Source: a virus (taxonomy: Duplodnaviria; Caudoviricetes). Taken from it: a stretch of DNA of 63,435 nucleotides. The stretch spans positions 1 through 63,435 of IMG/VR virus record IMGVR_UViG_3300033146_005951. The stretch is one strand, 5' to 3'. The position numbers and the translations under genes were made by a program. The notes beneath the pieces are model-generated. The model was not told where the DNA came from. It saw only the letters and a program-made list of their open reading frames with translations, and made no database searches. Shown one piece after another: positions 5,763-43,348 of this stretch (position 1 is its first letter; the number at the start of each line of letters is the position of its first letter).

Positions 5763-5774
5763 GAAGGTGTATAG

Positions 5775-7659: not shown

Positions 7660-7661
7660 TA

Positions 7662-9269: not shown

Positions 9270-9281
9270 AGGTATTTAATT

Positions 9282-9827: not shown

Positions 9828-9828
9828 G

Positions 9829-9993: not shown

Positions 9994-10157
9994 TTACTAA
10001 TTAGGTTATAACAGGTGTATTGATTAGGCACTTATCTTGGAGTATATTTTAATTTTAAGCTCTGGGGATAAATAATATTTAGGTAAAATTAAACAAAGTG
10101 ATTGTAAAAAGATACTAATCAATAGTAGAATGTACATAATATAATGAAAGGGAAATT

Positions 10158-10538: not shown

Positions 10539-10542
10539 GCCA

Positions 10543-24091: not shown

Positions 24092-27000
24092 ATGGAAAAT
24101 ACAATAATTCCTTTAAGTTTTGATGTAAGTGCTCTTCAAGGCCAACTTGATGATATTACTAAAATAATGAATAAGACTTTTGCTTCGTTTGGTAGCAAAG
24201 GACAATTCAAAAGTCTTTCTACTGCCATGAATTCATTTAAAGGTAGTTTTGGTACTATCAATAAATCATTAAAAAGTATTGATTCTAATTTAGGTTTACT
24301 TGTCATTAATATAAATAAGATGTCGAGTAGTTTACAAGAAACAGGTAAAGAAATGAGTACCTTACGACAAGGTACTAAAGATAGTATTGTTACTACAGAA
24401 AAACTTGTTGGTGGTTTTAGTAAAGTTCAATCTGAAGTTAAAGAAACTCAATCATTATTAAAGAAACCTATGAGTTTAAATATTGATTTAGGTAAGACAG
24501 ATCTTGTAGGTCCTCTTGAAAAGCAATTAAGTACAGCACAACAAAAAATTAACCAAGCTTATAAATTTGAAACCCCTATTGGAAAGAAAGCTATATCTTT
24601 TGTTGATGAGACTAAAGTCAAAAATGATGTCAAAGTTTTTGAGAATGCTTATTCTGAAATTAAAAATTCGTCAGATGCTATGATAACTTATGTTCGTGGG
24701 ACTACTCGAGATATTCTTAAGCATCCTATGAATTCACTTGAGCAGTTTCAAAATTTATGGACTAGAACTATTTATAATCTACAGTCGCATAAGACAGGGC
24801 GAGAAGCAATTCCTTTATTCACTCTTACAGGTTCTGAGCTTGGCCCCATATCTGCTGCAATAGAAAAATTAGCTGAATTTCGAAAAGTAAGGCGAGGTTT
24901 AGATGTTGAATCCTTAAAGAGTTTTGAAAGTAGGCCTTTTGAAGAATTAGCTAAATCTTTAAGTAAATCTGGGTTTGCATATGACGAATTAATTGAAGCA
25001 GCTAGGGCTTTTAATGTATTGGAAGTAACTGGAGAAAAGCATATAGATGCTAATATTAAACAAACCAAAGAATATAAAGTTTTAGAAAAAGCTATTAAAT
25101 TATATTCAGAGGCTGTGGCTGTGGCTGATAGACAAATGGAAAAATCAGGAACAGTATCTGATGGGCAGGTAACAAAAGTAAAAAAATTAAAGCTTGCAAT
25201 GGATGAAGCAAGAAAGTCTGTAAGCTTAAAAGGAGAAATCGTATCAGTTAATGCTTTAGCTGGGACATTAGAAAATTTAGGTGATGTTGCCGGCACAAAA
25301 GTTACAGCTGCATTTCATAAGTTAGCTAGTTCATCTAAAAAGATTGGTAAGGAAACATGGGCTAAAGTTTTTGAGGCTAAAGATATTGGGGGATTTCAAA
25401 AAGCATTAGTTGTTTTAGAATCAAAATTAGGTCAAGTTGGTAAATCTAATCCACAAATTGAAGCGTTATATAAAAACTTTAGTAATATAAAACAAATTGC
25501 TGAAACTCATTTTGCTGCAAAGATGTCTGCTGAGTTTGAGGAAGGTGCAAGTAAATCTGAGAAAAAAATTGGTGAGTTATATACTAAGATAACTAAGTTA
25601 CAAAGTCAAGTTGCAAAAGGGGAGCTTCCTCAAAGTGCTTTAGTTGGTCCATTCAAAGCACTTTCAAAAGAAGTTGAATCTCTAATCAAACGCTCTCAAG
25701 TATTAAATGTTTCTTTAGATCAAATAGAGCAATCTAAGGGTCCTTCGGCAATGCGGTATGAGAAAGGACCGAAATCAAGTAGTACAGAATCTCGTGACCT
25801 TGCAACAACATATCAGGAAGGTGTTAGTGAAAAACAAATTTCTTCTTTAAGCACTCTTCAGTCTGGATTAAGAGGAGTTGCTGATCAATTAATATATGCA
25901 AATACTGAACTTAAGGTTTCTGAGGCTGCGTGGGTAAGTTGGGGAGAAGCTAGAAAAAAGATTGTTTTTGATCTTCGTAAAATTACAAGCGAATTTGAAG
26001 TACCGGTTGAAGATGTTTCTCGTACAGATATATCTAAGAAACATAGACAGTATGCAGATTATCAAAAACAAATTGATAGTTTAGTTAAAAAAAGAAAATT
26101 GCTTGGTATGGTTGATAAATCAAGCTATTCAGAATCTCTTTCACAAATGAAAAAAGTATTATCTGGATTACCTCAATTAAATGATTTACAAAAAAGAGGT
26201 AACCAAATTGTACGTGAAAGAAAAGCTTTACTTGATGCTACTGCAGGTAAAGAAAAGACCCCAGAACAAATAGCTCATCTTGAAAAATTAAAGAAGCAAT
26301 ATAAGGAAGTTAAAACTGCTGAAACCGAAGTTGCGAACGTTACTTTATTAATTGCAAATGAAATGGATGTTCTTGCAAGTAAGTCCGCTTTTAATCCAAC
26401 AGATATCGCACGTATCTCAGAGTTTGCTATTGAATTACAAAGAATAGATTCTCTTATTAAAACCATTAGCGGTAAGTCTTCATTGAGTATAAGCGCAGAT
26501 GTTGAAACCTTACAGAGAAGTTTAGGTACGATTAGTAAGGATGCTATTCCAATTAAGACAAAAATCACTATTGATCAGAAAGCAATAGATAAAGAGATTG
26601 CTACATTAGGCCAAAAATTTCATGCTGCAATGGCTAAAGAACCTAAAATTCGTACAGAGACAAGAACAAAAACTGCGTTACAAACTATCCGTTCAACTCA
26701 AAATGCAATTGGTAAGTTAGATAAACAATTGTTTGCAATGACGGATTCTGCAAATGTTGCTTTGCGTAATATCAGAATGGATAAAGCTTTAAATCCTAAA
26801 GATGCAGAGCAGTTAATGAAACCATTACAAAATTTAGTTTCTGAATTTTCTGGCTTACAAAAAGATATTTTGTTAATAGATGAGTCTTTAACTAAATTAG
26901 GTTCTAACCCAACTGAAGAACAAATGCAGAAGGCCTGGTCTCAGCTTGAGCCTGTCTTTTCTAATGCTTATGAGAAGATGAATTTATTTTCTGGGGTATA

Positions 27001-30000
27001 TGATAATCTTTCAAAAAAACAAGGTGGTGCGACTGCTGCAACTAATAATATGGTTTCATCACTAGAAAGGTTAATGCAAAAACCTACACGTGCAGCAAAG
27101 TCATTTGATATTTTAATTGATTCATTATTAAGAACTCAGGGTATAGCAGGAAAAACAGATTTAGCTAAACAGTTAAAATCCCCCGATAAAGCAATTCGTG
27201 AATATGCACAGAAAATTTCTGCGTCAATTGGAAAAGCAAGAACTGGCTTAGATACTATTGCTGGAGAAGCTCTTGGCCCTGAGGCAAATAAAAAAATTAA
27301 GCAGAATATAAAAAGAGCAGAAGAGAATTATGTGAAGCAGGTTGCTGATGCACAAAAGCGAGCCAGACGTAAATTAGACTCATTAATTAAGAAGGCAGAG
27401 GCTGGTCCTGGGTTAAAACGTAGTGGTGCTATTGATAGTGCAAAAGCGGCATTTGGTAAAGAAATTGGCGCATCTATTATTTCTGCAAAAAAAAGCTTAG
27501 AACAAGAGAAAGAAAGAATTCTTAATGTTCCTGTAAAATTAAAACCAGGTGTTGAGGCTGATCTTGTACTTAAAAAATGGAAAAGTACAATACAAGCTTT
27601 AGTTACTGATTTTGGTCAAGGAGGTAATTTAGCTGCTCAGAAATTTCAAGAAATGTATGCTTCAACAGCAGGCGGTTTTAAATTTGATCAGTCATTGTAT
27701 AATGTAGCATCTAAAACTAAAAGCTTATTGGGTCAAACTGGTTCGTTCTTTAAAACAATGGGCTCTCGTAGTGGTGATGTTCTGCCTTTAGAAGAATTCG
27801 ATCAATTAATTAAAAGACAAAAGCAGTTTCAAAAAGAAGGGGCACTTAGTACTGTAGCTCTTAATCCAATTATTGAGTTAGGTAGTGTTATATCAAATAC
27901 TGCTAATGTATTTGATAAGATGAAATTAGCAGTTAAAGCTTCTGCTTCTCCAGAGGTTATAGATAGTATTCAAAAAGAAATTGATCAATTCATACGTCTT
28001 CGTAAAACATCAAAAGATTCAACTGCACAATTATCTCAGCAAACTAAAGAAACCCGTGGCTTAGGTTTCACCATGGAAAAATTTGGTTATGCTATTGATC
28101 TCCTTATTCAATATTTAGAAAAAGCCATTAATAAATTTCAAGGTTTAGGTAAAACTGCGCACACTGCACTTAGTGGCATTGGGTCAAGTTTAAGAGGCCA
28201 AGCTGGTTTATTTAAATCAGGTTTAGCAGATATTGAAGGACCAATGTTTGATATTAAGCCTGAAGGATTTAAGTTAACCAAGCCTTTAGAGTCTATGTTT
28301 TCTGAGATATATAATTCTTCATTAACTAGTTTGCAAGATTTACGTAAGGTGACTGATAAAGGGTTATCTGCTTGGTCTGTAAGTTTTAAAGGAGGATTGT
28401 CGAAGACTGATAATGTAATAAAGCAAAATGGGTCTGCTTTAATTGGGGGTTTAAGTAAAATAAGAAAAAGTGTTCAAGCATCTACTGTTGTAAATTGGGG
28501 TAATATAATTGATCCTAAGGGGGCTGAATTATTAAGAAAATCAGCAGTGGGTATTGATTTACAATTAAAAGAACTGCAAACAAGTATCGCAAGGTTTAAA
28601 ACTGGTAAGATTTCAGAGGTATCTTCCTTTCCTACAGTTAAAGCTTTACAAACTCAATTAAAAACAGTATTATCTGTATCTGAAGAAGTTAAGCGTAAGC
28701 TTGCAGCAGGTAAATTAGGCATGGAACATTTTCCAGCAGTTGATAAATTACAACAATATGCCCTACAATTAACTGCTGCAATTGATATGATCGAAAAACC
28801 ATATAAATCTATGAAAGGATTAGCTGGTCAAGAAGAAAAAGTTAGCACAAAACAATTAGGCAAATCTTTTAGGTCAGGAATAATAGGTGCTCAAAAAGAA
28901 TTAGAGGCTGCTGTTAAACAGGTAAAGACTCCAATGAAGTCTGTTATGGTCAGGTTATTTGAAGACGTGCTTTCAATGACACCTACTGAGATTCCCCAGG
29001 CAGCAGGAATGATGAGGAGTTTAGCTGAACAGTTTCCAAGTCAAATGCAATCTGCTTTTAATGTAATGGGTAAGAAAAAATATGAAGTAGGTAAGTTCAT
29101 TGCAAAAATGTTTAGCATAGATCCAAGTGAATTTAAAACAGTTGAAGCAGCTATGGAAAAGAGGGGAGCTGAAATTCCTAAAATGCTTCTCAAGGCTATT
29201 TTTCTAACTGAAGGTCAGGCAAAGTTTGCAGCAGATGCAAAGAAGTTGGCTAATCAAGTAATTACTGCTCCCCTAAACAAAGCCCTTCGGTCAGCAGGAG
29301 AAGTCACTATGCCCAAATTCGAAACTTTTCGAATTGGTGATGAAATGATGAGAGCCGCAAAATTTGAAGGTGAAAAATTTACTCAAGTAAAGTCTCAATA
29401 CGGAACTTACATTTCAAGTTTAATTAATGATATAAGCAAACTTATGAAAGTTTCTCCATCAAAAACAATGAAACCAATATTGGAGAAAATTTTTAATGCA
29501 AGTGATGTTAATGATATTAATGCTTATGCAAATGGCATGAAAGGGGCTTTAAGCAATATAAAAGATTATCTTCAGAAAGCTGTATCTGGTAAATTGCCAA
29601 AAGGGCAATTAGCAGCTGGTTTAGGTTTGCAAGAAGAATTTAAAGTAGCAGGTTTAGATATAGATGAAAATGAACTATCTCAAATGTTTGAGCAAATGTA
29701 TAAGACGGCAGGTCAATCATTAAAAGATTTTGTTGCTCAAGAAAAAAGGTGGAGCTCAGATTCGATTAAAGATTTAATAATATTAATGGAGTACTGGGAA
29801 AATTTAGGTGGCATGGTTGATATGGTAACCAAAAAGATACCTAAAGTTTCTAATATGAAAAACATTTCTGAAACAATGTTTAAGGGCACAGAGAGCGGTT
29901 CAGTTGCAGCTGGCCGTGATATGGCTCGATTAATGGTTACAGCATTAACATCTACTTTATCTGAGGGAAGCGGAATAAAACAACCTTTAGCTGCAATGAT

Positions 30001-33000
30001 TGGCAAATCTCCTGAGGTCATATTTGAAATAATGCGAGGTACAAATCAAAAACTTAAAAATGAATTAAGAGATTTAGGTTTTAATTTACGTGGAAGTACT
30101 ACAGATTTAGTTAAAAGTATTTCTAAGTTGGGTGATGTAAAAGTAGGTACTGAATGGTTTGAACAATATAGATTGGCAAATGAGAGATTTAATATAGAAG
30201 GTGAAAAAACAGGCATAGTATTAAAAAAGATCCGTGATGGATTTAATACAATAACACCTTTAAGTTCTGAGGGGTTATCTGAACTTGCAACTCGTTCGCA
30301 AGATTTTCTTACTAGAGCAGGTATTGCATTTGAAAGCTTTGATACAAAGTTGTTTAAGCACTCTATTAACTTTAATGCATTTAGTGAAAAAGAAAAAGCT
30401 AATGTTGGAAAGTATACTAATATACTTTCTAAAGGTATGCGTACTATAGGACAATTCCTCCAAGAAGATCCTTTTTCAGGTAGCATAATGCGTTTAGTTA
30501 GAGAAGAAGATGTTCTTTGGGAGAAACTAATTGTTTCTGCTGATAAAGGAGGCAAGAAACTTAAAACAAGCATTCAATCTGAATTAGCTAGGGCACTTGA
30601 TACAACCAAACGTGAAGGAATTAATTTAAATAGATTATTCAAAGGCACTGGTAAAGTTCCTGAGCTCCAAGAAATTATTGGGCAGTTAATGGAGTTACGA
30701 AAAACCAAGCGTGCAGTTGATACTGAAATGATGGCACCTGGTGTTAGACCTTTTAGTAATCTTATTAAAGACGCTTCATTACTGCAAGGAACATTATTAA
30801 CTGCTTTTGGTAGTATATCTAAAGGATTGTCTCGTGTAGGTGAGACAGGCAAAGTAGATATTAAGATGGGCAATTCTATCAGAAATCTTGATACAGTTAC
30901 TCAACATTTAAATATACTTCAAGCAGAAATTGACGAAACAATTGCATATGCAAAAAAGACAGGTCAAACTTTACCTTTAGAGTTTCAATTAGTAACGCGC
31001 TCAGTTTCAGATATGGGTTCGAGCCTTAATAGTTCATATGAAGTTTTAAAAAAGTTACCTACTCACGCAAAGGTCTCTGAAAAAGATATGGAGAAACTTG
31101 CTGAGACAGTAAATAAATCTGCAAGCGCTTTGAAGAAATTTGATCAGATAGATCTTAAAGAATTTTCTTCTAGAGTAGGTACAGCAATGTCTATTGCTAT
31201 GAATAAGGTTAATGCTTTTAGTAAGCAAGCTCAAATAAGGCCTTCATTTCAGCTAGGTAAAACTGGTGTTGATCAAATACTTAAAGCTACTGGCAGTGAT
31301 TCTGATAAGATGATTCAGCAATGGAGAGAGTCTGCTGTAGCAGGTGGTGATACATGGAAACAGATGACAATGTTTCTAAAAGAATTAGAACCTGAAATGA
31401 AAGGAATTTTTGAACGTTTTGCAAGTAAGCCTAGATTATTATTAAAAGCTTTTGATAAAATGACTCCCCAGATGAGAATATTAATGTCTTTATATTTTAA
31501 TGAAATGGGTCATTCTACCGCACAAGGTTTTCAAAAGTGGATGCAGACATATGATAAATATTTTAGCGGTATGACAAAAACAAATAAAAGGCATCTTGAA
31601 ACCTTTTTAGGATATACCTCTCAAACTATGGCATCTTTTAAAGCCCCTGATGTAACTAAGTATTTTGCTCCTGAAACAGGATTAGAAGCAGATAAAACAA
31701 CAGAAGGGTTAAAGAGGCTTGGTAATGCTTTATCTAAACTTGGCATTAATATGAAAGAATTAAAAGATCTTTCTGGAGATACTTCGTGGTTGAAAAAGTG
31801 GGGAGAAGCTTTTGCTACACCTATAGATTGGGATTTTGGCCCAGGCAAAGGGAAGACAATTCAACTTACTGGTACGTTTAGTATGTTTGCTAAAGCAATT
31901 ACTCATGTAGGTGAGGGGTTAGATATATTAATGACTCAGTTGCGTAGAGTAGGAGAAGAAACTCAATCTGGTGCAATTCAAAAAGGAATCAAACAATTAG
32001 TTGCCCTCATTATGCAATTAGATGCTGAGTTTAGTAAAACTTCTAAATTTAAATTATCTATTGGTGCAGGATTAAGTACAAGCTTAAAACCTTTAAGAGA
32101 TGTAGGTTATGCAATAAATAGTTTCTTTGATGCAATGGAAAAAATCAAACTTGCTTCAGATTTTACTTTAACTCAAAAAGAAATTAGTTCATTTGGTAAT
32201 ATAGTTATAATAACAATGAATCAAGTTGCTGCTGCAATGAGTCCTGCTGTTAAAGCTTTAACTGGGTTTGCAAATACAACTGCTGTTAAAAGATTCTCTC
32301 AGTTTGCTCAAGGATTACGTGATTTAGTTGCTGCGACAAAAGACCTTTATCAATTTACAGCTGTATTTAGTGAGATAGACAAAGATTCTAAAAAAGGAGC
32401 TACTGCGTTAGGTCATTTTGAAAAAGTAATGAAATCAATGATGATCTTATTGAATAGCATTCCTGATATATCTAAAAAACTTAATTTTGGTGTAAGTAAA
32501 GATGCAGCAAATAATGCTAGAATGCTTGTTGAGGTATTAAAGCCACTGGCTCAATCTATGTTAATGATTGGTGAGGCTTTTAAAGGAAATGTTAATATCG
32601 AAAGCAATATGAAGAGATTTTCTTCAGCTTTAAAAGGAATGATTAATGTTATTAGAAGTGTTGATTTAGATCCAGTAACTAAAGATTTATTAAATGATAT
32701 ACGTAAACTAACTCAAATATTTAGTTCTAAAGCTTTAGTTGCAACACCTGATGAGGCAGAAAAAAGGCTTCAAGTCTTGGCTCAAGTAATTGAGCAAGGA
32801 TCAAATAAAGTTGCACAAAAAACTAAGCAGGGTATTGAGAAGATGAATCGAGCTTCAAAGACCCCAAAGACTGATTTTTTAACTGATTTAGGTATTACTC
32901 CAGGCAAGGCTACAGGTGGTGGGGGTATTGTATCTGATTTAATGGATATTCAAACTAGTTTTTCAGAGCCAGTGCCAAATTTTGATGCCAGTGAACAAGC

Positions 33001-36000
33001 AATGGGGCATTTAGCTAGTGCTGGAAAAGAAGTAGGAAAAGTACTTCAAGTTATTAACAATGCTGTAATTAAGTTAGGTTCAGAATTTAAAGAAATTCTT
33101 CCTGGAGAAGAAAAGTTTATTACAGAATTGACTCAATTAGCTGCATTGAATCCTGCTGCAGCTATTGATAAATTAAATATTAAATTGAATTCGTTAGGTA
33201 AAAATTTAGCGGGTGATAATTTAAAGAAATCACAAGATGCAATACAAGGGTTTATAATTGAATTATTAAATGGTGCTGCAGGTCTTAAATCAATGGGTGC
33301 TGCAGGTACTGAACTGCAGAAGATCCATGATAACTTAAATAAAGATACAGTTAGCACTAAAGAATTAACTATTGCATTGACAAAAGTTAAAGGAGTTTTA
33401 AAGAGTGTAGAGGTTGAATCTGCAAAACTTGATTTACAAAATCGATTATTAAAAACAAGAGGGGAGGCTAAAGGTGTCCATACAGAAATAAAAAGTTTAC
33501 TTATGTCTATGAAAGCATTAGGTCCCGAGTTTAGAAAATCTCTTTCTACTGGTGATGCTAGGCGTGAATTCCTTTCTTATTCAAATGAGCTAGGTTCAAA
33601 ATTAGAGACTGCAATGGGTCCAATGAGGGCATTTTCTGGATTCAAAGGAGTTAGCGAAGAAATTAAAAAAATGACTTCGAGTATGGCCGTATTAAAAAGC
33701 CAATCTCAAGGCATGGTTACTTTAGCAGATCGGTTTACAGGTAAATTAAGAATTGCAGGAGATCAGTTTTTAAATCTAGTTGCATATCAAACTAGGTGGT
33801 ATGTTTCACAACAAATCTTTTTTATGGGGTTTGGTCAGATACAAAAAATACTTTCTAATTTTGGTGCTTTGGATATTCAAGTAAGAAGAGTTCTTCGTGT
33901 TCTTCGTGATTCTAATAATGCAGTGTTGGGTATTGATTCTTCAATTCGGGCTTTATCTGGAGCAGGTGTTAAGTGGGCTTCTGATTGGGCTCAGAATATG
34001 GAAGTAATGTTTAAGGCCCAGACAAGATCTACGTTTTATAGTTTATTTAAACAACTTGGTACAACCTCTGAAGAAATTGGTGAGTCCATGTATCAGTTGG
34101 GTTCTGCAGGTTTGCAAGCAAATGAAGTAATGTCTGCCATTGAACCAACTCTTCGAATGATAATTGCTACTGAAGGTGAAGTTAAAGATACTACTCGATT
34201 GATAGCAGGTGTTTTTAATTTATATGGAAATTCAATTGAAGGAGCAAGAACAAATACTGAAAAGTTTGTATATATCACTGATGTATTAACTGCAACATTT
34301 AGAGATCATATGGTTACGATTGGAGAACTCATTACTGGTATAAGTTATACAATCGCTACTGCTAAACTTTCTGGTATGCAATTTGAAGAAGTAACTGCGG
34401 CACTTGCAGTTTTAAATGATAATATGTTAAAGGGTTCAAAGGCGGGCCGTGCATTTAATAGGATGCTTTTAAATTCAACTAAAAGATTAGATGAAACAAA
34501 AGATATTTTACAAGCAATTGGAAATCAGGCAAATATAGGAGTTGATTTAACAAAGATTTTTGAGGGGTTGGAAGTCAGTGGAGCTAGACCATTTGATTAT
34601 ATTATTCAAGCTGGCATAGCAATGCAAGAACAATTAAAGACTGCTAATCTTACAGTAGAGAATTTAACTAGGACTTTTAAGTCTATGGGTGTAGTTGGTG
34701 CTCGTGCTTTTGCCATCCTTTTATTAAAAGCTGGTGATTATGAAAAGACATTATTTCAGTTAAAATATGCTGCGTTTAGTGCTGGCGAAGATATGTCTGA
34801 ATTATTAATTGGTGGTTTTGATAGATCAATTCATCGAATTGAAGGTTTCACTCGAGCAGGTTATGCGCGTGTAATGGGAATAGCTCGTGGCGGCGTTACC
34901 GTATTAGCTTCAATGGTTCAGCAAGTAGAAAGTGGTATTAAGAGAATTTCTGAAATGCCTTTTATTCCAGATATTCCAGATGTTAAAAGTTATATTTCAT
35001 TTTTTGGTGTAGTTGCAACTGGTGCTGCAATATTTGCTGGAATTAAGAAAAAGCCTTTGCCTGGATTAGATGCTTTGAGGTTTGATAAGTGGGCTAAAGG
35101 AATTAATAAGTTTACTCTTAATATAGATCAAAACAGAACTGCATTAAAGTTACTCAATGTTGAATTAAGAAAGACTGGATTAAATGCAATTAATTTAGGT
35201 CAAGCATATGAAACTGCAGCAAATAAAATGACTGCAATGAGTAAAATGGGATCTACAATGTCTACGTTTAAAGGACTAACTGGATTAACGTCGTCTTTTA
35301 AACCTCAACAACAACTTATTATATCTGGTTTAAAAGATATTGAAAGAGCTTATACAAAAGTAACTTCAGGCAAATGGAGTATGGGAGATCTGACTGAATT
35401 TAATAGCCAGATGAAATCAATTGCTGCATTCGAACCGACTTTCTTAGCCCGTGAGAAAGAATTTACTATTAAAACTAATTTAACTCGAACCATTAGTGAG
35501 TTTCAAAGAGGATCAATTTCTGCTGATCAATTTAGAGATAGACTTAATGCTGTTCATAAAGAAACTATTAAAGCCAGTGGAATGTCAAATTTAACTACTA
35601 AATTAGATATTTTCGAAAAAGAATTAGCAAGTGGTTCTATGACTATGAGCCAATATACTACTAAATTACGTCAGTTGGGTATTGAAGCAAATAAATTAGG
35701 TAGTATAAAAACTTTTGGATTAGGTGCTGTATCTACAAAAGGATTTGCTGAATCATTTAAAGGAATGAGTAAGTTAAATAAATTATATTCTTCGAACATG
35801 GATCAAATGAGCAAGATAGGCATTAAGTCTATGGATCAAGTTTTTAATTTAGTTAGAAATCCTGCAGCTTGGAGTGAATTTGCATCTAATATGACTAAGA
35901 GTTATAGTAAATTTGATTCTCAAACTCAAAAAGTTTCAAATCAGTTTGGTAGGTTAGTCGATCAAATATCAACACCAATTCGTAAAGTATCTATAGGAAT

Positions 36001-39000
36001 TTCTCAAGATGCTATGGAAAAAGATTTTGTTAAGCAAACAAAAAGCATGTCTGTTTTAAAAGAATCTTGGAAAGGATTTGCAGGAGGTGTTGGCCTTGGT
36101 ACTTCAAAGTTAACAAGTTGGTTTAAAACTATGCGAAAAGTAATGAGTGGCATAGTTCCTCAAATTGGAGAATTTGATTCTTCATTCAGTAAAGCAGTTG
36201 CCAAACGTGAAGCTTTAGTTAAGGTAGCTGCAGGATTTAGAGGAATAGGTGGAGCAGCACGTGGAGCAGCTATAGCAGTTAAAGGATTCTTAGCGTCTAC
36301 TATTGCACTTTTAGCTTTATCTGTTGCAGTGCAAAAAGCTTTTGAGTGGTTCGAAAAACTTTCGCGTGGTACTGAGTATTATGCACAAATATTGGGTACA
36401 GTAAACGCTGAATTTAATAAAACTGTTGCAAGCCTTACAGGAAATATATCAGGAATTACTAGATATGTTGATAAGCTTAGTGAATTACGTGAGTCCATGA
36501 ATATGCGTCTTAAAATTGATGCGGATATAGAAACCAAAGAATTTAATAGAGATTTGTCTCATTTAAGTGGTTTATTAGAAGGTACTTTTCAATTTGAAAA
36601 TTTTGAATTTAATGTAAAATATGGTACTGTAACTGATGCAATTGTTGCTTGGAGGGATTTAAATGATGTTATTGCAAATTTAAAAGAAGAGACATCAAAT
36701 AAAGCAATTGGTCGATTTGTTGAATTAGGCAATGAGTATAAAAAGGCAAGTGAAATTTATAAAAATACAATTACAACTGCACTCGAAGGTTCTTGGTTGA
36801 AATCTCGTTGGGATTCTTTTAGGGGCAAAGAGAAAAGCACTAGTTTAAAAATTAAAATAGAAGATTTGAGTGACCCAGATAAAGTTAAATTTAAACGCCA
36901 AGGCCAAGAAGCAGCCAAGCTCATGATTGATTCAGCTAAAATAGTTTTGCAGCAGGGCGCTACAACTTTTGATTTAGTGTGGGATAAAAATTCAATTGCT
37001 ACTTTCGATCGACAATTAAATAATGTTTTTGAATCTACAACTTTGTTTGGTGATAGCCTCAAAACTACTAATTTAAAATTTAATGTTTTTATTAAAAGAA
37101 TGAAGCAAAGTGCAAAAACTGCTGAATTATTTGATCAATTTAAAGAAGTTGGTGAAAATTTAAACAAGGTATTTCAAGTAGGGGGTGCTGAAGAGTTTGC
37201 TACTTTTATGAAAATGTTTCCTAATTTAGCTTCTGAAAGTAAAGATGAAGTTAAAGGTCTTGCTGATTCGTGGGCTAGTTTAGGGGAAGATGAGAGAGCA
37301 GTTGTTTTGATTAACGCAGCACGTAAAGATCTTAAATTATTTCATAAATCTATGAAAGCAGTTTCTGCAGATGGTAGCATGTTACAAGCAGCAGATTCAA
37401 CTAAAAAATTTGTTGAGGTTGCTATTACTGACATATCAATGTTAAATACTAGTATTGCACAGATGGGAGGTACATTAGCAAGAGAATTTGAAAGTACTTG
37501 GAGTCGTGCTTGGGGTCAATGGGTCAATGAAGGAGTTACTGCTTCACTTGATGTAGATAAAGCTTTAACTGGTTCTTTTGAGTATGGTTCAAAATCTATT
37601 TTAGGTAAATTAGAAAGAGATATTTCAAAAACCACAGATCCAATAGTTAAGAGTTTTACTTCAGCATATACAAAAGTGGGTAGCGTTTGGGCTAAAGAAA
37701 CCTCTAAAATGATAAAGGACAATAAACTCCCTAAAGCATTTAGTAATTGGGGTAATGAATTAAGAGTTGCTTTAACTAGTCCTTGGGCAAAAGCTAGATC
37801 AGCACAAGATGAGTGGCGTTCAGGTATGAACAATGCTGTTGATGCTGCAATGATGAGATTTAATTTATTGCAAGAATCAATGTCTAAAATGGGTAGTTTA
37901 GTTTCAGAAGAGTGGCTGCGCGCTCAATCAGCAATATCCAATAACACTTCATTTGGTTCTGAAAAAGATGGTGAGGATGCAATAGAAAAATTTACTGATG
38001 GAATAGAGAAATCTTTAAAAGCAGCAATTAAGAGTGGTCATAAGGGAATTCAAGATTTAGCAAAGGCTATGTCTGGTGATGTATCAGGTGCAATAGATTT
38101 AACAGTTAAGCGCATGGAACGCTTAACTAATGTAATTGCACAAGCTAAGAGTCTCAGTATTGAAGTAAAAGATGCAATAAGTAAGTGGGAGGGTAGTATT
38201 GTTTTAACAAATAAAGTTCTTAGTGTTACTCTTGATTATTTGAAGAAGTTTGCTAAAAATGCTGATATATCTAAAACAGTTCGAGATATGAATGTTGCTT
38301 TATTAAAGAATGAAAAACTTAGAGCTAAAGAAGCATTTGAAAGGGGAAAAAAGTTAGGTGTCTCTGATGAGGATAAATTGAAAGGGGCTAAAACTTATTT
38401 AGAAAGATTAGATCAAATCAACGAGAAGCTGATGTCTTCAGCAGTAGAAAGCCTTAAGAAGCATATATCAGATAAGGCTAAAGCTGAAAAGAAAGAAATG
38501 ATTGAGCGACATAAACGAGAGAACAGAGCAGCTAAAGAAAGCCAGTCTTTACGAAAAATATCTTATCGTGAAGAAGTTAAAGATGCAAAAATTCAAGCTG
38601 CTTCTATAAAGAAAATTGAAAAGCTTAGGTGGAAAAGACCAGGTTATAAGGCAGATGTTGATCAGAAAATTGAAAATGAAAAAATGTGGGGTGAGCGATC
38701 TCGAGATGAAAATAGGCATAATAGCGAAATGTCAGCTCAACAAAAAAAGTTTAATGATGATGCAACAAAAGCTCGTAAAGAAAGACAAGCTGCTGAGTTA
38801 AAAACACTTGAAGAGACTGGCGGAAAAACTGCTAAGTCAATGCAAAAATTAGCTGAAGTTTTGGCTGATATTGACAGTGGTGAATTAAAAATAAAAAGTA
38901 TGGATGAATTATTAGTTCATATTACTTCATTGGGTGATCCTGAATTAACTAAGAATTTTAAGTTATATTTAGATGAAATCAAAAATACTAATGTGGAAAT

Positions 39001-42000
39001 ATCTTCTATTGGTGTTGAAGCGAAAGAAGTTGCTGATCGAGCAGAAAAGTCTCGACTTGAGACAAAAGATGCTTTAAAGAGTTTAGTCTCATTGCAAGAG
39101 AAACTTACAAAGTACTCAGAGACAGTTTCTAAACAAAGCAAAGTAATTGCTGATTTATTAAAACGCGAAGGATTAACTCAAGCAATTCAAGCATTAAGTG
39201 CTATGGGATTTAATGTTAAGTTAGATAAAGAAGGAGTGTTTAAAGATGATAAGACTCTTGGAATGTTCAATAAATTAATTGGAGAAGCCAGTGAAGGTTT
39301 AGTTGATGCAGCAAATAAATTACAAGCACAAGTTCAACCTATTAAAGCTTTTGGTAAGATTCCAGTAGAAAAAGAAGATGTTGTTTCTAGCATATCTCGA
39401 CAATTACTTAATCTTGGTAAATCTTTTCCAGAAGTCAGTTCTCATATCGATGAACTTAGCACACAATTTATTATTCAGTTAGATCGTATGAAAGCATCTG
39501 GAAAAACTCAAGAAGAAATTGATTCTAGATTAGGTGTTGTTTTAAGCAGTATTACTGGCATAAGTGATGACGCTAAAAATTTAAATCCGACATCAATGAG
39601 CTCTTATTTAGATGATATAACTAGCATGTTGAAAATCACAAGCAATGATCTTAAGCAAATTGATATTTCAAATATTCAACCATCAACTACAAAAGCTTTA
39701 TTGCAAGAAAAGATTCAACCAATTGCATCAGAAACTACATTGAAAAATATTCAAAAGAATCAGAATAAAATTGATTCTTTTGTTAGTGAATTGCCTCAAT
39801 GGACTGAAGTTGCTGATAAAGTTGAAGAAGTTGCAATTTCTTCTTTTGAGGATGTAAGTCAAATGGCTCAAAATATTTTTGATGCTCAGAAGAAGAAAGT
39901 TCAGGAAGGGTATCTTGCCAGAGATGATTTTCGTTTGCGAGATGGAAAGCTTCAAAAACGTACTGCACAAGCAGATGTAGTGCTTGGAAAAATGATTCCG
40001 ATTGACATCACTAAAATTCTCGATGCAGATACTTTTCAAACTAAAATTGGGGATGCAGTTGTTAATCTAAGACTTGCTTTCATTGATGCATTAGAATCAA
40101 ATCAAGCAGGTAGTACCTTACAAACCGAAGGAATAAGAAATTTAGTTGATGAGTATAAAAAATCAGGTTATAGCATTCAAGCATTTTTTAAAGAGTATGA
40201 TGAGAAAAGCAATAGATTAATATCTACTATTTATGCAACTAAAGATGGTGAAAGTATAGATATCAACCAGGAAGCAATTGCTAGAGGAATTGCACAAGTA
40301 TTTGTCCCTAAAGGAATTATTTCTACTGAAGATAGAAACGTTATTCAGGGTTATGGTAAAATCCAAGAAGCAGCTAAAGAAATGAGTGCAGGTATTCATG
40401 GATTTTCACAATGGTTGTCTACTACGTATCCAAATATGACAATGCAGCTACCTGAGAATTTTAGGGAGATAGTTGGTCGTGGTGATGAAGTAGATATCAG
40501 AACTATTCTTGAAAATGAATCTAAATTAAAGGTTGCATTTAATGAATATTTAGATAAACTTGGTAAAAGTCCAATATACACTGAAGAAGAAATGGCAGTG
40601 ACTGATAATGCAGTTAATCAATTACTTAAATTAGGTTCAACTAAAGGTTCGATATTTGTCCATGATGTTCATTTAGATGAATCGATAAAAAATTTATTTT
40701 CTGCAATAAAAGCTCCTGGTGTGAATTATGAAATACAACAAATGCCTGAAATAAATTCTGAGGTATCAGGTAATTCTATTAAGAATGCTACTGTTAAGTT
40801 AGAAGAAAGTACTTTTAAAGTTAGTGAATTAATGCAAAATCTTGAAGGTGTGTTTGATCAAAATTTTATTAAAACATTGCTTGATGCACTTCCTACAACA
40901 CAAGATACTACAGAAAATTTAATGAGTAAGCTTGCTCAGGAATTTTCTGATTTAAGAGATGTTTTTGTTAAAGGCGTACAATCAATAATATCTGCAATTA
41001 TATCAAAGCAGTTAGTTGTGAATTTACCTAATAACAATGAAATGGCTAATAATATTAAAAAATTTACTGATCAAGCAACTGAGAAAGGGTCAATATTTAC
41101 TCATGATATTCATTCAGAAAGTGCAATAGTAGATTCTGCTAAACAATCAAAAGAAGGTTTAAGTAAAGTTGCAAAAGCACAGTCAGAAACTTCAGTTAAA
41201 GTAGGTAATTATATTTTTGAATTAGATAAAGCAAATGATAGAATTTTTCCTGCTGCAACTACGGGTGTATTTGGTGTGGAAGGTTTAGCTTATGAAAAAT
41301 TTAAAGCATTAGAATTTAAAATTCCAGATGAAGATGTAAAAGGGCTAAGTGAAGGTATTGTTAATTCAATGAAACAATATGCTGCACAGGATAAAAGAAG
41401 ATCAGAAACTACATTGCCAAGTAAAGACTGGTCTGATCAAGAATATCGATCCTTAAAACTTACAAACGCTTTTGATACTGTAATTCCTCAATTATATGAT
41501 ACAGTTGCAGAATTATCTAAAAGTGTACCGGAATCTGCTTATAAAGAGATGATATCTGCAGTTAATGACGCCTCAATGACTTTATCAAATTTTAGTAGAG
41601 AAAAATTAGGAGGCAACCAAAGTATAGTTTATGATGTCTTAATGGAAGCAAGGAATAAAATAAATTCAATATCACAACAATCGCAAATCCAAACAAAATT
41701 ACAACCAGACAATACAAGTAGTAGAGTTGGATTAATTCAAGAATCTTCTAATTTTATTAATTCAATGTCAAAAGTAACAGATCAATTTAATGAGGAATTT
41801 TTAATTAACAATAAGTTACTTAATACAATTAAATCTACTGATTTAAGCGGTTCGATGTTCGATAGAGATAAGATTAAAAATTTATCAATGGAAATTGTCA
41901 ACGGGATGATTTTAATCAAAGATAGTACTACGGGAATAGCCCATGGATTTAAAACAGCAGAAGAAGCAGTTGCTAAAATTGGAGACACAACTTTTAATGC

Positions 42001-43348
42001 TTTGAAAATCAAAAAAAGAGAACAGAAATTTGAAATATCAAATCCTCAGTATGAAGCAAGCTTTCAAAATCCATACGAACAACCAATTACTTATGAAGTT
42101 CAAGGTGCGCAGGAAATAGATGCAAAAATATCTGATGAAAGCATCCAAATATTTAGAGATATTTTAACAGGTGCTGTATATGCTTCTAATGTAGGTTTTA
42201 CTGGTTTTACTGGAAGTGGTGCAGCAGCTGTTGAAAGATCTAGAGAAATTTCTAACTTGATGCAAGGAATAGAAGATACTTTTGGGAAGGGCTTAACTAA
42301 TGCGTTATCGAACGCTTTTCCTTCTTTAGGCAGTCAAGCGCAAAGTTCAATGGTAGAACTTTCGCAAAAATTCACAGATTTACAAACCGCCTTATCTTCA
42401 AAAGGTTCGACAGAAGCAAATTCCGAAGTTCAATCTTTCTTGTCTTACTTAGAAGGATTGTCTAATAAAATGGGTGAAGTTCAATCAAAGATGACTGTTC
42501 CTAGTGAGAAATATACAGCCCAAATAGAAATGTTTTCTGAGGCCTTAAATACTATTAAAACTAAAGTTGCAGATTTTACTTTGGAGGCACCTAAAGAAGC
42601 AGAAGTTTTAAGTGAAGCTACAGATGATGCATCTACTGAAATGGTAGAGTCTGTAGTTCCAATGTCTAATGCAACTAAAAATTCTACTGAATCAATCAAT
42701 ATTTTTGGTTCAGGATTAATTTCTTCATCTGCAAACATTTCTGAAGCAATAAGTTCAGCTATATTTACAATTAATACAGCTGCATCTAATGTAAGAAGTG
42801 GTGGTGTAAATATGGGGCTTTTTCAAGATGGGGAATCTGAAATTTCAATGAGTGAAGTTGCTGATATGGTATCTCAGTCATTAGAAAATTTTAGTAGTAG
42901 TTTAGATAATGCTGCAGGTGGGGCCAGTGACGCTTTGGAAGATATGGGAGATGCAGCTGATAATGCTGGAAATGTATTAGGTGGTATGAGTAGGTTTGGT
43001 GCACGTACTGGTATTGTGTTACCTGGCTATGGTGGAGGAGATCGTATTCCATTTGATTTAGAGCCAGGTGAAGCAGTAATAAATAAAGAAGCTGTTCGAA
43101 TGTTTGGCAGAGATTTATTTAATAATTATAATCAAGGCAAAAGTGCAACAAGTATGCCTTCTGTAGGTAAACGATTAACTAAAGTTCGTTCTGTTGTTGA
43201 AAAGAAATTATTAAATGACGATTCTCCAATAAGAAAATTCGATATTAATTTAGCTGGTGTGCCTTTTAAGGGTCTCGCTACAGAAGATATGATCAATCAA
43301 TTAGAGAAAGGTTTGAAACGCAAACAATTAGTAGGTCAAAATATATAA
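24092..43348 (+). CDS. Giant tape measure protein (6418 aa) with a central TP901-type core and a C-terminal SNase-like domain
   Basis: Helical K/A/S/L-rich sequence; core 'EEIGESMYQLGSAGL..ITDVLTAT..FEEVTAALAVL...KGSKAG' near nt 34000-34750; C-terminal 'PGYGGGDRIPFDLEPGEAVINKEAV'; synteny. Confidence 0.9.
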   Translation: MENTIIPLSFDVSALQGQLDDITKIMNKTFASFGSKGQFKSLSTAMNSFKGSFGTINKSLKSIDSNLGLLVININKMSSSLQETGKEMSTLRQGTKDSIVTTEKLVGGFSKVQSEVKETQSLLKKPMSLNIDLGKTDLVGPLEKQLSTAQQKINQAYKFETPIGKKAISFVDETKVKNDVKVFENAYSEIKNSSDAMITYVRGTTRDILKHPMNSLEQFQNLWTRTIYNLQSHKTGREAIPLFTLTGSELGPISAAIEKLAEFRKVRRGLDVESLKSFESRPFEELAKSLSKSGFAYDELIEAARAFNVLEVTGEKHIDANIKQTKEYKVLEKAIKLYSEAVAVADRQMEKSGTVSDGQVTKVKKLKLAMDEARKSVSLKGEIVSVNALAGTLENLGDVAGTKVTAAFHKLASSSKKIGKETWAKVFEAKDIGGFQKALVVLESKLGQVGKSNPQIEALYKNFSNIKQIAETHFAAKMSAEFEEGASKSEKKIGELYTKITKLQSQVAKGELPQSALVGPFKALSKEVESLIKRSQVLNVSLDQIEQSKGPSAMRYEKGPKSSSTESRDLATTYQEGVSEKQISSLSTLQSGLRGVADQLIYANTELKVSEAAWVSWGEARKKIVFDLRKITSEFEVPVEDVSRTDISKKHRQYADYQKQIDSLVKKRKLLGMVDKSSYSESLSQMKKVLSGLPQLNDLQKRGNQIVRERKALLDATAGKEKTPEQIAHLEKLKKQYKEVKTAETEVANVTLLIANEMDVLASKSAFNPTDIARISEFAIELQRIDSLIKTISGKSSLSISADVETLQRSLGTISKDAIPIKTKITIDQKAIDKEIATLGQKFHAAMAKEPKIRTETRTKTALQTIRSTQNAIGKLDKQLFAMTDSANVALRNIRMDKALNPKDAEQLMKPLQNLVSEFSGLQKDILLIDESLTKLGSNPTEEQMQKAWSQLEPVFSNAYEKMNLFSGVYDNLSKKQGGATAATNNMVSSLERLMQKPTRAAKSFDILIDSLLRTQGIAGKTDLAKQLKSPDKAIREYAQKISASIGKARTGLDTIAGEALGPEANKKIKQNIKRAEENYVKQVADAQKRARRKLDSLIKKAEAGPGLKRSGAIDSAKAAFGKEIGASIISAKKSLEQEKERILNVPVKLKPGVEADLVLKKWKSTIQALVTDFGQGGNLAAQKFQEMYASTAGGFKFDQSLYNVASKTKSLLGQTGSFFKTMGSRSGDVLPLEEFDQLIKRQKQFQKEGALSTVALNPIIELGSVISNTANVFDKMKLAVKASASPEVIDSIQKEIDQFIRLRKTSKDSTAQLSQQTKETRGLGFTMEKFGYAIDLLIQYLEKAINKFQGLGKTAHTALSGIGSSLRGQAGLFKSGLADIEGPMFDIKPEGFKLTKPLESMFSEIYNSSLTSLQDLRKVTDKGLSAWSVSFKGGLSKTDNVIKQNGSALIGGLSKIRKSVQASTVVNWGNIIDPKGAELLRKSAVGIDLQLKELQTSIARFKTGKISEVSSFPTVKALQTQLKTVLSVSEEVKRKLAAGKLGMEHFPAVDKLQQYALQLTAAIDMIEKPYKSMKGLAGQEEKVSTKQLGKSFRSGIIGAQKELEAAVKQVKTPMKSVMVRLFEDVLSMTPTEIPQAAGMMRSLAEQFPSQMQSAFNVMGKKKYEVGKFIAKMFSIDPSEFKTVEAAMEKRGAEIPKMLLKAIFLTEGQAKFAADAKKLANQVITAPLNKALRSAGEVTMPKFETFRIGDEMMRAAKFEGEKFTQVKSQYGTYISSLINDISKLMKVSPSKTMKPILEKIFNASDVNDINAYANGMKGALSNIKDYLQKAVSGKLPKGQLAAGLGLQEEFKVAGLDIDENELSQMFEQMYKTAGQSLKDFVAQEKRWSSDSIKDLIILMEYWENLGGMVDMVTKKIPKVSNMKNISETMFKGTESGSVAAGRDMARLMVTALTSTLSEGSGIKQPLAAMIGKSPEVIFEIMRGTNQKLKNELRDLGFNLRGSTTDLVKSISKLGDVKVGTEWFEQYRLANERFNIEGEKTGIVLKKIRDGFNTITPLSSEGLSELATRSQDFLTRAGIAFESFDTKLFKHSINFNAFSEKEKANVGKYTNILSKGMRTIGQFLQEDPFSGSIMRLVREEDVLWEKLIVSADKGGKKLKTSIQSELARALDTTKREGINLNRLFKGTGKVPELQEIIGQLMELRKTKRAVDTEMMAPGVRPFSNLIKDASLLQGTLLTAFGSISKGLSRVGETGKVDIKMGNSIRNLDTVTQHLNILQAEIDETIAYAKKTGQTLPLEFQLVTRSVSDMGSSLNSSYEVLKKLPTHAKVSEKDMEKLAETVNKSASALKKFDQIDLKEFSSRVGTAMSIAMNKVNAFSKQAQIRPSFQLGKTGVDQILKATGSDSDKMIQQWRESAVAGGDTWKQMTMFLKELEPEMKGIFERFASKPRLLLKAFDKMTPQMRILMSLYFNEMGHSTAQGFQKWMQTYDKYFSGMTKTNKRHLETFLGYTSQTMASFKAPDVTKYFAPETGLEADKTTEGLKRLGNALSKLGINMKELKDLSGDTSWLKKWGEAFATPIDWDFGPGKGKTIQLTGTFSMFAKAITHVGEGLDILMTQLRRVGEETQSGAIQKGIKQLVALIMQLDAEFSKTSKFKLSIGAGLSTSLKPLRDVGYAINSFFDAMEKIKLASDFTLTQKEISSFGNIVIITMNQVAAAMSPAVKALTGFANTTAVKRFSQFAQGLRDLVAATKDLYQFTAVFSEIDKDSKKGATALGHFEKVMKSMMILLNSIPDISKKLNFGVSKDAANNARMLVEVLKPLAQSMLMIGEAFKGNVNIESNMKRFSSALKGMINVIRSVDLDPVTKDLLNDIRKLTQIFSSKALVATPDEAEKRLQVLAQVIEQGSNKVAQKTKQGIEKMNRASKTPKTDFLTDLGITPGKATGGGGIVSDLMDIQTSFSEPVPNFDASEQAMGHLASAGKEVGKVLQVINNAVIKLGSEFKEILPGEEKFITELTQLAALNPAAAIDKLNIKLNSLGKNLAGDNLKKSQDAIQGFIIELLNGAAGLKSMGAAGTELQKIHDNLNKDTVSTKELTIALTKVKGVLKSVEVESAKLDLQNRLLKTRGEAKGVHTEIKSLLMSMKALGPEFRKSLSTGDARREFLSYSNELGSKLETAMGPMRAFSGFKGVSEEIKKMTSSMAVLKSQSQGMVTLADRFTGKLRIAGDQFLNLVAYQTRWYVSQQIFFMGFGQIQKILSNFGALDIQVRRVLRVLRDSNNAVLGIDSSIRALSGAGVKWASDWAQNMEVMFKAQTRSTFYSLFKQLGTTSEEIGESMYQLGSAGLQANEVMSAIEPTLRMIIATEGEVKDTTRLIAGVFNLYGNSIEGARTNTEKFVYITDVLTATFRDHMVTIGELITGISYTIATAKLSGMQFEEVTAALAVLNDNMLKGSKAGRAFNRMLLNSTKRLDETKDILQAIGNQANIGVDLTKIFEGLEVSGARPFDYIIQAGIAMQEQLKTANLTVENLTRTFKSMGVVGARAFAILLLKAGDYEKTLFQLKYAAFSAGEDMSELLIGGFDRSIHRIEGFTRAGYARVMGIARGGVTVLASMVQQVESGIKRISEMPFIPDIPDVKSYISFFGVVATGAAIFAGIKKKPLPGLDALRFDKWAKGINKFTLNIDQNRTALKLLNVELRKTGLNAINLGQAYETAANKMTAMSKMGSTMSTFKGLTGLTSSFKPQQQLIISGLKDIERAYTKVTSGKWSMGDLTEFNSQMKSIAAFEPTFLAREKEFTIKTNLTRTISEFQRGSISADQFRDRLNAVHKETIKASGMSNLTTKLDIFEKELASGSMTMSQYTTKLRQLGIEANKLGSIKTFGLGAVSTKGFAESFKGMSKLNKLYSSNMDQMSKIGIKSMDQVFNLVRNPAAWSEFASNMTKSYSKFDSQTQKVSNQFGRLVDQISTPIRKVSIGISQDAMEKDFVKQTKSMSVLKESWKGFAGGVGLGTSKLTSWFKTMRKVMSGIVPQIGEFDSSFSKAVAKREALVKVAAGFRGIGGAARGAAIAVKGFLASTIALLALSVAVQKAFEWFEKLSRGTEYYAQILGTVNAEFNKTVASLTGNISGITRYVDKLSELRESMNMRLKIDADIETKEFNRDLSHLSGLLEGTFQFENFEFNVKYGTVTDAIVAWRDLNDVIANLKEETSNKAIGRFVELGNEYKKASEIYKNTITTALEGSWLKSRWDSFRGKEKSTSLKIKIEDLSDPDKVKFKRQGQEAAKLMIDSAKIVLQQGATTFDLVWDKNSIATFDRQLNNVFESTTLFGDSLKTTNLKFNVFIKRMKQSAKTAELFDQFKEVGENLNKVFQVGGAEEFATFMKMFPNLASESKDEVKGLADSWASLGEDERAVVLINAARKDLKLFHKSMKAVSADGSMLQAADSTKKFVEVAITDISMLNTSIAQMGGTLAREFESTWSRAWGQWVNEGVTASLDVDKALTGSFEYGSKSILGKLERDISKTTDPIVKSFTSAYTKVGSVWAKETSKMIKDNKLPKAFSNWGNELRVALTSPWAKARSAQDEWRSGMNNAVDAAMMRFNLLQESMSKMGSLVSEEWLRAQSAISNNTSFGSEKDGEDAIEKFTDGIEKSLKAAIKSGHKGIQDLAKAMSGDVSGAIDLTVKRMERLTNVIAQAKSLSIEVKDAISKWEGSIVLTNKVLSVTLDYLKKFAKNADISKTVRDMNVALLKNEKLRAKEAFERGKKLGVSDEDKLKGAKTYLERLDQINEKLMSSAVESLKKHISDKAKAEKKEMIERHKRENRAAKESQSLRKISYREEVKDAKIQAASIKKIEKLRWKRPGYKADVDQKIENEKMWGERSRDENRHNSEMSAQQKKFNDDATKARKERQAAELKTLEETGGKTAKSMQKLAEVLADIDSGELKIKSMDELLVHITSLGDPELTKNFKLYLDEIKNTNVEISSIGVEAKEVADRAEKSRLETKDALKSLVSLQEKLTKYSETVSKQSKVIADLLKREGLTQAIQALSAMGFNVKLDKEGVFKDDKTLGMFNKLIGEASEGLVDAANKLQAQVQPIKAFGKIPVEKEDVVSSISRQLLNLGKSFPEVSSHIDELSTQFIIQLDRMKASGKTQEEIDSRLGVVLSSITGISDDAKNLNPTSMSSYLDDITSMLKITSNDLKQIDISNIQPSTTKALLQEKIQPIASETTLKNIQKNQNKIDSFVSELPQWTEVADKVEEVAISSFEDVSQMAQNIFDAQKKKVQEGYLARDDFRLRDGKLQKRTAQADVVLGKMIPIDITKILDADTFQTKIGDAVVNLRLAFIDALESNQAGSTLQTEGIRNLVDEYKKSGYSIQAFFKEYDEKSNRLISTIYATKDGESIDINQEAIARGIAQVFVPKGIISTEDRNVIQGYGKIQEAAKEMSAGIHGFSQWLSTTYPNMTMQLPENFREIVGRGDEVDIRTILENESKLKVAFNEYLDKLGKSPIYTEEEMAVTDNAVNQLLKLGSTKGSIFVHDVHLDESIKNLFSAIKAPGVNYEIQQMPEINSEVSGNSIKNATVKLEESTFKVSELMQNLEGVFDQNFIKTLLDALPTTQDTTENLMSKLAQEFSDLRDVFVKGVQSIISAIISKQLVVNLPNNNEMANNIKKFTDQATEKGSIFTHDIHSESAIVDSAKQSKEGLSKVAKAQSETSVKVGNYIFELDKANDRIFPAATTGVFGVEGLAYEKFKALEFKIPDEDVKGLSEGIVNSMKQYAAQDKRRSETTLPSKDWSDQEYRSLKLTNAFDTVIPQLYDTVAELSKSVPESAYKEMISAVNDASMTLSNFSREKLGGNQSIVYDVLMEARNKINSISQQSQIQTKLQPDNTSSRVGLIQESSNFINSMSKVTDQFNEEFLINNKLLNTIKSTDLSGSMFDRDKIKNLSMEIVNGMILIKDSTTGIAHGFKTAEEAVAKIGDTTFNALKIKKREQKFEISNPQYEASFQNPYEQPITYEVQGAQEIDAKISDESIQIFRDILTGAVYASNVGFTGFTGSGAAAVERSREISNLMQGIEDTFGKGLTNALSNAFPSLGSQAQSSMVELSQKFTDLQTALSSKGSTEANSEVQSFLSYLEGLSNKMGEVQSKMTVPSEKYTAQIEMFSEALNTIKTKVADFTLEAPKEAEVLSEATDDASTEMVESVVPMSNATKNSTESINIFGSGLISSSANISEAISSAIFTINTAASNVRSGGVNMGLFQDGESEISMSEVADMVSQSLENFSSSLDNAAGGASDALEDMGDAADNAGNVLGGMSRFGARTGIVLPGYGGGDRIPFDLEPGEAVINKEAVRMFGRDLFNNYNQGKSATSMPSVGKRLTKVRSVVEKKLLNDDSPIRKFDINLAGVPFKGLATEDMINQLEKGLKRKQLVGQNI

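Follow-up and report, generated by a model that had tools for sequence, protein, structure and literature searches.

Tape measure proteins (TMPs) of phages carry wall-degrading domains, and Rocchi et al. reportedly described in 2019 a nuclease effector that a phage-tail-like structure injects. In one studied case, gp96 of Thermus phage P23-45, the TMP is fused to a virion RNA polymerase that transcribes pre-early phage genes, and both the activity of the polymerase and its presence in the virion were demonstrated experimentally (PMC10770324). In this study, we analyzed a stretch of 63,435 nucleotides of viral DNA (Duplodnaviria; Caudoviricetes; IMG/VR record IMGVR_UViG_3300033146_005951, positions 1 to 63,435), which is referred to as the window and covers the whole record. 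A single uninterrupted open reading frame (ORF) of 19.2 kb at 24092..43348 on the plus strand, with 6,418 codons, encodes a protein of 6,418 aa, and this product is identified as a TMP by its family profiles and its position in the tail module. We found that the part of this TMP at aa ~5300-5465 (39989..40483, plus strand) carries a staphylococcal nuclease (SNase)-like domain. Sequence comparison shows that it truly belongs to the superfamily of staphylococcal (micrococcal) nucleases, although it has diverged strongly, and both its homology and its fold are well supported. As judged from the sequence, the tail of this uncultured phage probably brings a pre-formed enzyme for cutting nucleic acids into the envelope of the host.

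Homology and predicted fold of the SNase-like domain

The first-pass annotation of this DNA had placed an SNase-like domain at 40001..40403, embedded in the TMP at about aa 5304-5437. We examined the region using Pfam, phmmer, hhalign, AlphaFold2 (AF2), Foldseek, VIA-align, a residue table and ratios of nonsynonymous to synonymous substitution (dN/dS). Position 40001 of the window corresponds to residue 5304 of the TMP, the I of IDITKILDADTF, and position 40403 corresponds to residue 5437 (AGIHG). The peptides that had been quoted are present in frame 1 of ORF 24092-43348, within two residues of where they had been placed. The phmmer, hhalign, AF2, Foldseek and VIA-align results confirmed the domain. 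Its core had been located correctly, but the limits had been drawn too narrowly, and the domain extends slightly further, over ~39989-40483. Its place is within the last sixth of the TMP, downstream of both transmembrane-like segments. On its C-terminal side, it includes a P-x-x-F-R motif, the aligned counterpart of P-W-x-x-R in the SNase family.

We searched the domain against 1.84 billion representative proteins with phmmer and obtained four matches at E<=0.001, comprising the TMPs of two relatives and two true SNase proteins. The first relative (P0003) is a 6,416-aa TMP homologue with a domain match of 79% identity, and the second (P0004, 3,034 aa, 71% identical) is apparently a 5'-truncated gene call. 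The two SNase proteins are short, P0005 with 179 aa (E 5.4e-5; 63.5 bits on PF00565) and P0006 with 224 aa (E 4.4e-4; 72.7 bits). A reference SNase alignment of 26 proteins, P0006 included, was prepared, for which 28 relatives of P0005 were collected. When three TMP segments were compared with these 26 SNase proteins by hhalign, the probability was 97.6% and the pairwise E-value was 4.4e-12 over 139 columns. Moreover, BLASTP matched the domain to a domain in the TMP of an uncultured siphophage (L003) at E 9e-8, and the top three ESM Atlas clusters found by features were all thermonuclease, with scores of 0.89-0.90. In a sequence search of the PDB, thermonuclease accounted for 14 of the 15 chains among the matches listed, at E-values of only 0.2-0.7.

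We then modeled the domain. With a 27-row alignment (A4) as input, AlphaFold gave a predicted local distance difference test score (pLDDT) of 90.3 and a predicted template modeling score (pTM) of 0.84, and the chain ran through a beta-barrel and then helices. The predicted structure is a five-stranded oligonucleotide/oligosaccharide-binding (OB) barrel packed on three helices. Foldseek against the PDB returned staphylococcal nuclease in all 50 matches listed (E ~4e-9, TM score 0.82 normalized to the target). VIA-align, which does not depend on Foldseek, ranked SNase 1sta_A first over 48,161 chains, with a Z-score of 15.9 and a root-mean-square deviation of 1.9 Å over 125 residues, and the runners-up were Tudor-SN domains (Z 13.6-14.1). 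The best matches to the model in BFVD were viral thermonucleases and a few long viral proteins. Both the profile-profile comparison and the AlphaFold model, which had been proposed earlier as checks on this region, pointed to SNase.

Several observations weigh against this assignment. The PF00565 profile, also proposed as a check, did match the domain (E 0.0069), but at 17.3 bits it remained under the 21-bit gathering cut-off. This cut-off is an operational criterion, not a biological one, and because the score falls below it, we term the domain a diverged homologue on sequence grounds rather than a Pfam-defined SNase member. None of the PHROG families matched the domain at E<=0.01, the only candidate being phrog_34965 at E 0.06. 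A profile made from three near-identical TMP segments found thermonuclease in the PDB at E 0.43, behind a designed protein, and thus performed no better than the single sequence. From the single sequence, AlphaFold gave a pLDDT of 46, and that model was unusable. The confident model took an alignment of SNase proteins as its input, and its structural matches therefore confirm the sequence homology without being separate evidence for it. The resemblance might have arisen by chance, the segment being ordinary TMP sequence, and the PF00565 score below the cut-off and the PDB sequence matches at only E 0.2-0.7 speak for this. However, phmmer, the PF00565 scores of the matched proteins, hhalign, AF2, Foldseek, VIA-align, the BLASTP match to L003 and ESM Atlas all indicate SNase, and the segment is a locally conserved island between variable flanks. 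We therefore regard a chance resemblance as extremely improbable.

Searches for further relatives were also performed. No match was obtained when the domain was compared with 50,697 phage records by tblastn, and scans of IMG/VR, in which either the domain or the C-terminus of the TMP served as the query, found no relative. PF00565 gave no match at E<=10 against the six-frame translation of the record itself, although hmmscan on the excised protein is the more sensitive search. With the free-standing SNase P0006 as the tblastn query, no tape measure annotation occurred among the best 60 of 372 phage records.

Catalytic residues and selection

In SNase, D21 and D40 are metal ligands, E43 is the general base, and R35 and R87 bind phosphate. 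The first-pass annotation had stated that the equivalents of D21, R35, D40, E43 and R87 are retained, and this holds in our alignments. SNase residues D19, D21, R35, D40, E43, K84 and R87 align with D5311, D5313, R5327, D5332, E5335, K5372 and R5375 of the TMP. The counterparts of D19, D21, R35, D40, E43 and R87 are kept in all four giant-TMP sequences (this TMP, P0003 and two further relatives, L001 and L002). The catalytic set thus looks intact although the domain has diverged, and nuclease activity is predicted for it. The bacterial SNase relatives have conserved cysteines, and the TMP domain has none. The whole 6,418-aa TMP contains no cysteine, and TMP fragments of relatives (3,516 and 4,015 aa) are likewise cysteine-free.

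The TMP domain carries replacements at four positions (G20A, P42L, Y85S/T and G86N) at which conservation among the 26 reference proteins is >=90%. G20A was otherwise found only in L003 and in a related fragment (L004), and P42L occurred in none of the 40 other sequences examined. Since the replaced positions neighbor the sites for metal and phosphate, the changes might weaken or abolish activity. Substitutions at such near-invariant positions, the sub-threshold Pfam score and a long branch in the tree described below would all suit a domain that is catalytically dead or nearly so and works as a folding, plug or binding module, for example as an OB-fold binder of nucleic acid or of another tail component, or as a fast-refolding knot that assists in drawing the TMP from the tube. 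Non-catalytic SNase folds exist, and the Tudor-SN domains, with Z-scores of 13.6-14.1, match our model. However, binding-only SNase folds typically lose their catalytic residues, whereas the six catalytic or metal-binding residues are kept here in 4/4 relatives and also in the L003 TMP, in a baseplate hub of phage ME3 and in five internal virion protein fusions. A dead domain is in our view a serious rival, if rather an unlikely one.

We next calculated dN/dS by the Nei-Gojobori method against the DNA of L001 and L002, which came from one metagenome scan. The domain is 71% identical to that of L001 and 69% identical to that of L002, and the architecture, a TMP core and an SNase domain in one polypeptide, is the same in P0003, L001 and L002. 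The dN/dS of the SNase domain was 0.24 against L001 and 0.21 against L002, compared with 0.39 and 0.46 for its 200-codon flanks and 0.30 and 0.32 for the rest of the TMP. These results show that the domain is under purifying selection and forms a conserved island inside the fast-evolving C-terminal third, without being an outlier. Its dN/dS is just slightly under the TMP average, a point that counts against our reading of an active enzyme.

SNase domains on other virion proteins and proposed action

We identified SNase domains in other virion proteins as well. The uncultured siphophage L003, from the metagenome scan that also gave L001 and L002, has genes for a Mu-type portal, protease, major head, adaptor and major tail protein, followed by an ORF of 1,864 aa (6269-11863). 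This ORF matches three PHROG TMP families and, at aa 1265-1377, PF00565 with 51.1 bits. The domain has all of the catalytic set, shows 26% identity to the one described here over 193 columns (pairwise E 9e-8), and has the DADT variant in common with it. In both TMPs, the SNase domain keeps the catalytic set, carries G20A and lies in the C-terminal part. The two phages are unrelated, however, and the L003 TMP is 3.4 times shorter, its Pfam score is above the cut-off, and P42 is kept. L004, from the same scan, is of the L003 type but fragmentary.

A tblastn search with the L003 domain found ME3_37 of the cultured Acinetobacter phage vB_AbaM_ME3 (KU935715; L005 710-7699), a baseplate hub of 2,329 aa. 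PF00565 matches ME3_37 with 53.2 bits at aa 1126-1241, a Peptidase_M23 domain follows 59 residues later at aa 1301-1401, and the catalytic set is intact. In its record, ME3_37 is annotated merely as 'baseplate hub protein' or 'peptidase'. A passage in a 2007 paper remarked on an SNase domain in the BtI1 hub homologue and called its purpose 'not obvious' (PMC2147016). The ME3_37 and BtI1 hubs resemble our TMP in having an SNase domain inside a virion protein for cell penetration, but they are hubs of contractile tails and not tape measures, and the ME3 SNase domain scores far above the Pfam cut-off.

A search for longer proteins with alignment A4 yielded 37 matches, including five metagenomic proteins of 1,506-1,892 aa (P0061, P0063, P0064, P0067 and P0069). 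In each of the five, the N-terminus is an SNase domain that keeps the catalytic set, and the C-terminal half matches phrog_6651, 'internal virion protein'. The C-terminal part of P0063 additionally matches 58 records for 'internal virion protein D' from pelagiphages, roseophages and cyanopodophages. The SNase part was covered in none of the 25 listed of these 58 cultured-phage homologue records, in which the matches start at query residue 1020 or later. Similar to our TMP, these gp16-like fusions belong to a class of protein that is ejected from the virion, and their SNase domain has its catalytic set intact; they differ in their podovirus-type scaffold and in the N-terminal position of the domain. 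Three other proteins of 1,166-1,838 aa (P0044, P0055 and P0062) had PF00565 as their sole Pfam match; P0044 represents 174 sequences, and P0062 comes from a 50-kb contig.

In three scaffolds, the SNase domain occupies or adjoins the usual slot of wall-degrading domains: it adjoins M23 in ME3, and in the gp16-like proteins it is N-terminal, where T7 gp16 has its transglycosylase. In addition, a Pfam scan found no muralytic domain anywhere in the 6,418-aa TMP. The domain might accordingly be an active phosphodiesterase on an envelope polymer with phosphodiester links other than nucleic acid, aiding penetration in the manner of muralytic TMP domains. However, we know of no SNase-family enzyme with an envelope polymer as its substrate, which counts against this explanation. 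We consider it very unlikely.

We built a 44-row tree to compare the domains. The SNase domains of the internal virion proteins formed a clade nested among free-standing bacterial SNases, apart from the other virion domains, and because of this separate clade, their capture by internal virion proteins was probably independent. The giant-TMP clade sits on a very long stem of 2.26 changes per column, which is a further difficulty for our assignment, and the tree does not resolve the placement of this clade, L003 and ME3, for which long-branch attraction is flagged. We tentatively suggest, as a doubtful rather than an expected outcome, that SNase nucleases are a recurrent and undescribed class of virion-delivered enzyme, captured independently at least two times and present on four kinds of scaffold (two unrelated TMPs, jumbo-myophage hubs and gp16-like proteins). 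If this is true, nucleic-acid cutting in or at the host envelope would be a regular entry step for some phages, like peptidoglycan cutting. SNase refolds without chaperones and without disulfides, which would suit it to passage through the tail tube.

For the TMP described here, we lean towards an active enzyme, with confidence that is modest and falls somewhat on the positive side. The SNase superfamily domain would be stored in the tail tube together with the rest of the TMP, be expelled ahead of the DNA at infection, fold or refold after expulsion, and then, at or within the envelope of the host, attack nucleic acid as a phosphodiesterase that depends on metal. From the homology, the fold, the aligned catalytic residues, the purifying selection and the recurrence of the domain, we infer its catalysis, delivery, site and substrate. 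In siphophages, the tip-proximal (C-terminal) part of the TMP leaves the tail first. The storage step meets a difficulty, as the lumen of the tail tube would hardly have room for this 165-residue domain in three folded copies.

SNase enzymes require Ca2+ at extracytoplasmic concentrations, far above the cytoplasmic level. The alignment showed that the nearest free-standing SNase relatives have hydrophobic N-termini resembling signal peptides. We prefer the envelope or periplasm as the site of action because the Ca2+ need of SNase matches levels outside the cytoplasm, because the nearest free relatives start with these signal-peptide-like N-termini, and because 59 residues separate the ME3 SNase domain from the peptidoglycan peptidase domain behind it. 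The same three points speak against an active nuclease with a cytoplasmic target, in which the whole TMP would be threaded into the cell before the DNA and the domain would attack host DNA or RNA, or the nucleic acid of a defence system, in host takeover or counter-defence. Moreover, a non-specific nuclease just ahead of the phage DNA would endanger that DNA. A cytoplasmic target is compatible with the intact catalytic set, and the TMP-fused RNA polymerase of P23-45 indicates that a TMP, or at any rate some portion of it, is able to act on injected DNA (PMC10770324). Taken together, we judge a cytoplasmic target to be decidedly unlikely.

The first-pass annotation had interpreted the domain as an ejected nuclease delivered with the genome, for example for host nucleic-acid attack, counter-defence or the clearing of extracellular DNA. 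This interpretation is partly supported overall: the TMP and an SNase-fold homologue with an aligned catalytic set are borne out, and nuclease activity, release or delivery, and the roles are proposals. The clearing of extracellular DNA fits poorly, since the tail tube encloses the TMP up to the moment of triggering and its nuclease could not clear such DNA before adsorption. If the envelope-directed enzyme that we favor is active, it would be a different kind of pre-made activity, present before any phage gene expression. It would raise the questions of which nucleic acid the phage meets in the envelope and how its own DNA is spared, and a bearing on biofilm DNA, competing phages or host defences would become a question as well. 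The SNase domain in the hub of the cultured phage ME3 makes the matter testable at the bench.

The tape measure gene and comparison with known systems

The protein that contains the domain had been called a TMP, and profile searches bore this out. PF10145 (PhageMin_Tail) matches aa 3319-3494 (34046..34573, plus strand) at E 3e-23 and 83.2 bits, against a cut-off of 33.2, and four PHROG 'tail length tape measure protein' families (phrog_1533, 28, 4704 and 167; E 4e-17 to 1e-14) match the same part. This core is the most constrained part of the protein, with a dN/dS of 0.05-0.09 across the L001 and L002 comparisons. Upstream of the TMP gene are genes for terminase, portal, protease, major head and adaptor proteins, and downstream are tail proteins phrog_6079 and phrog_1887. 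Two transmembrane-like hydrophobic segments were detected with a 19-residue Kyte-Doolittle window, one at aa 3633-3651 (34988..35044, plus strand; maximum 1.72) and the other at aa 4058-4084 (36263..36343, plus strand; maximum 1.99).

Behind the SNase domain, a conserved extension at 40484..40672 (plus strand) is near-identical in P0003, P0004, L001 and L002 and ends in the first GSIFVHDVH motif (aa 5519-5527, 40646-40672). It is followed, in the alignments of relatives, by an indel-rich variable stretch at aa ~5540-5940 (40709..41911, plus strand), which holds the second motif, GSIFTHDIH (aa 5666-5674, 41087-41113). L001 lacks ~400 aa of this stretch yet retains the SNase domain and the extension, and L002 aligns poorly there. 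TMP length varies among close relatives because of this indel-rich stretch. Both copies of GSIFxHDxH lie behind the SNase domain, and the first copy is kept in L001 and L002. The H-D-x-H of the motif could, from its sequence, be a metal binder. Self-BLAST showed no internal repeats in the TMP, and this 9-residue motif, in two copies, is the sole repeated item. A repeat-fenced cargo bay had been considered and was dropped for this reason.

The source record of 63,435 bases has ~33% G+C and a CheckV completeness estimate of 56%, and no tRNA genes were found in it. The terminase led, by tblastn, to one uncultured record at 26% identity. A 470-aa ORF at 19951-21363, within the structural module, matches the LAGLIDADG homing endonuclease family phrog_11023 (E 3e-17) and also the HNH endonuclease family phrog_5046. 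A helical ruler rises ~1.5 Å per residue, and if all 6,418 aa acted as such a ruler, the tail length would approach 1 micrometre.

We finally compared the locus with the known systems. With S. aureus nuclease A (PF00565; PDB 1sta, 3bdc), the TMP domain shares the fold of an OB barrel plus helices and the aligned residues D19, D21, R35, D40, E43, K84 and R87. The two are only ~21-22% identical, and the domain is embedded in a 6,418-aa virion protein, unlike the small secreted enzyme. It also differs in the substitutions G20A, P42L, Y85S, G86N and Y113F, in a 3-residue insert in the helix-1 region and in a 5-residue insert ahead of the C-terminal Trp.

We found no published description of an SNase domain in a TMP, the broader literature on TMPs and nuclease domains having been checked only in part. 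P23-45 gp96 resembles our TMP in being a giant TMP that bears a nucleic-acid enzyme, a cargo other than a wall hydrolase. Its authors call their TMP of 5,002 aa giant (PMC10770324), and the TMP described here has 6,418 aa. The enzyme of gp96 is N-terminal and an RNA polymerase, whereas here a predicted nuclease fold lies in the C-terminal sixth. Enzyme-bearing TMPs were thus already known, and what is new here is the type of enzyme.

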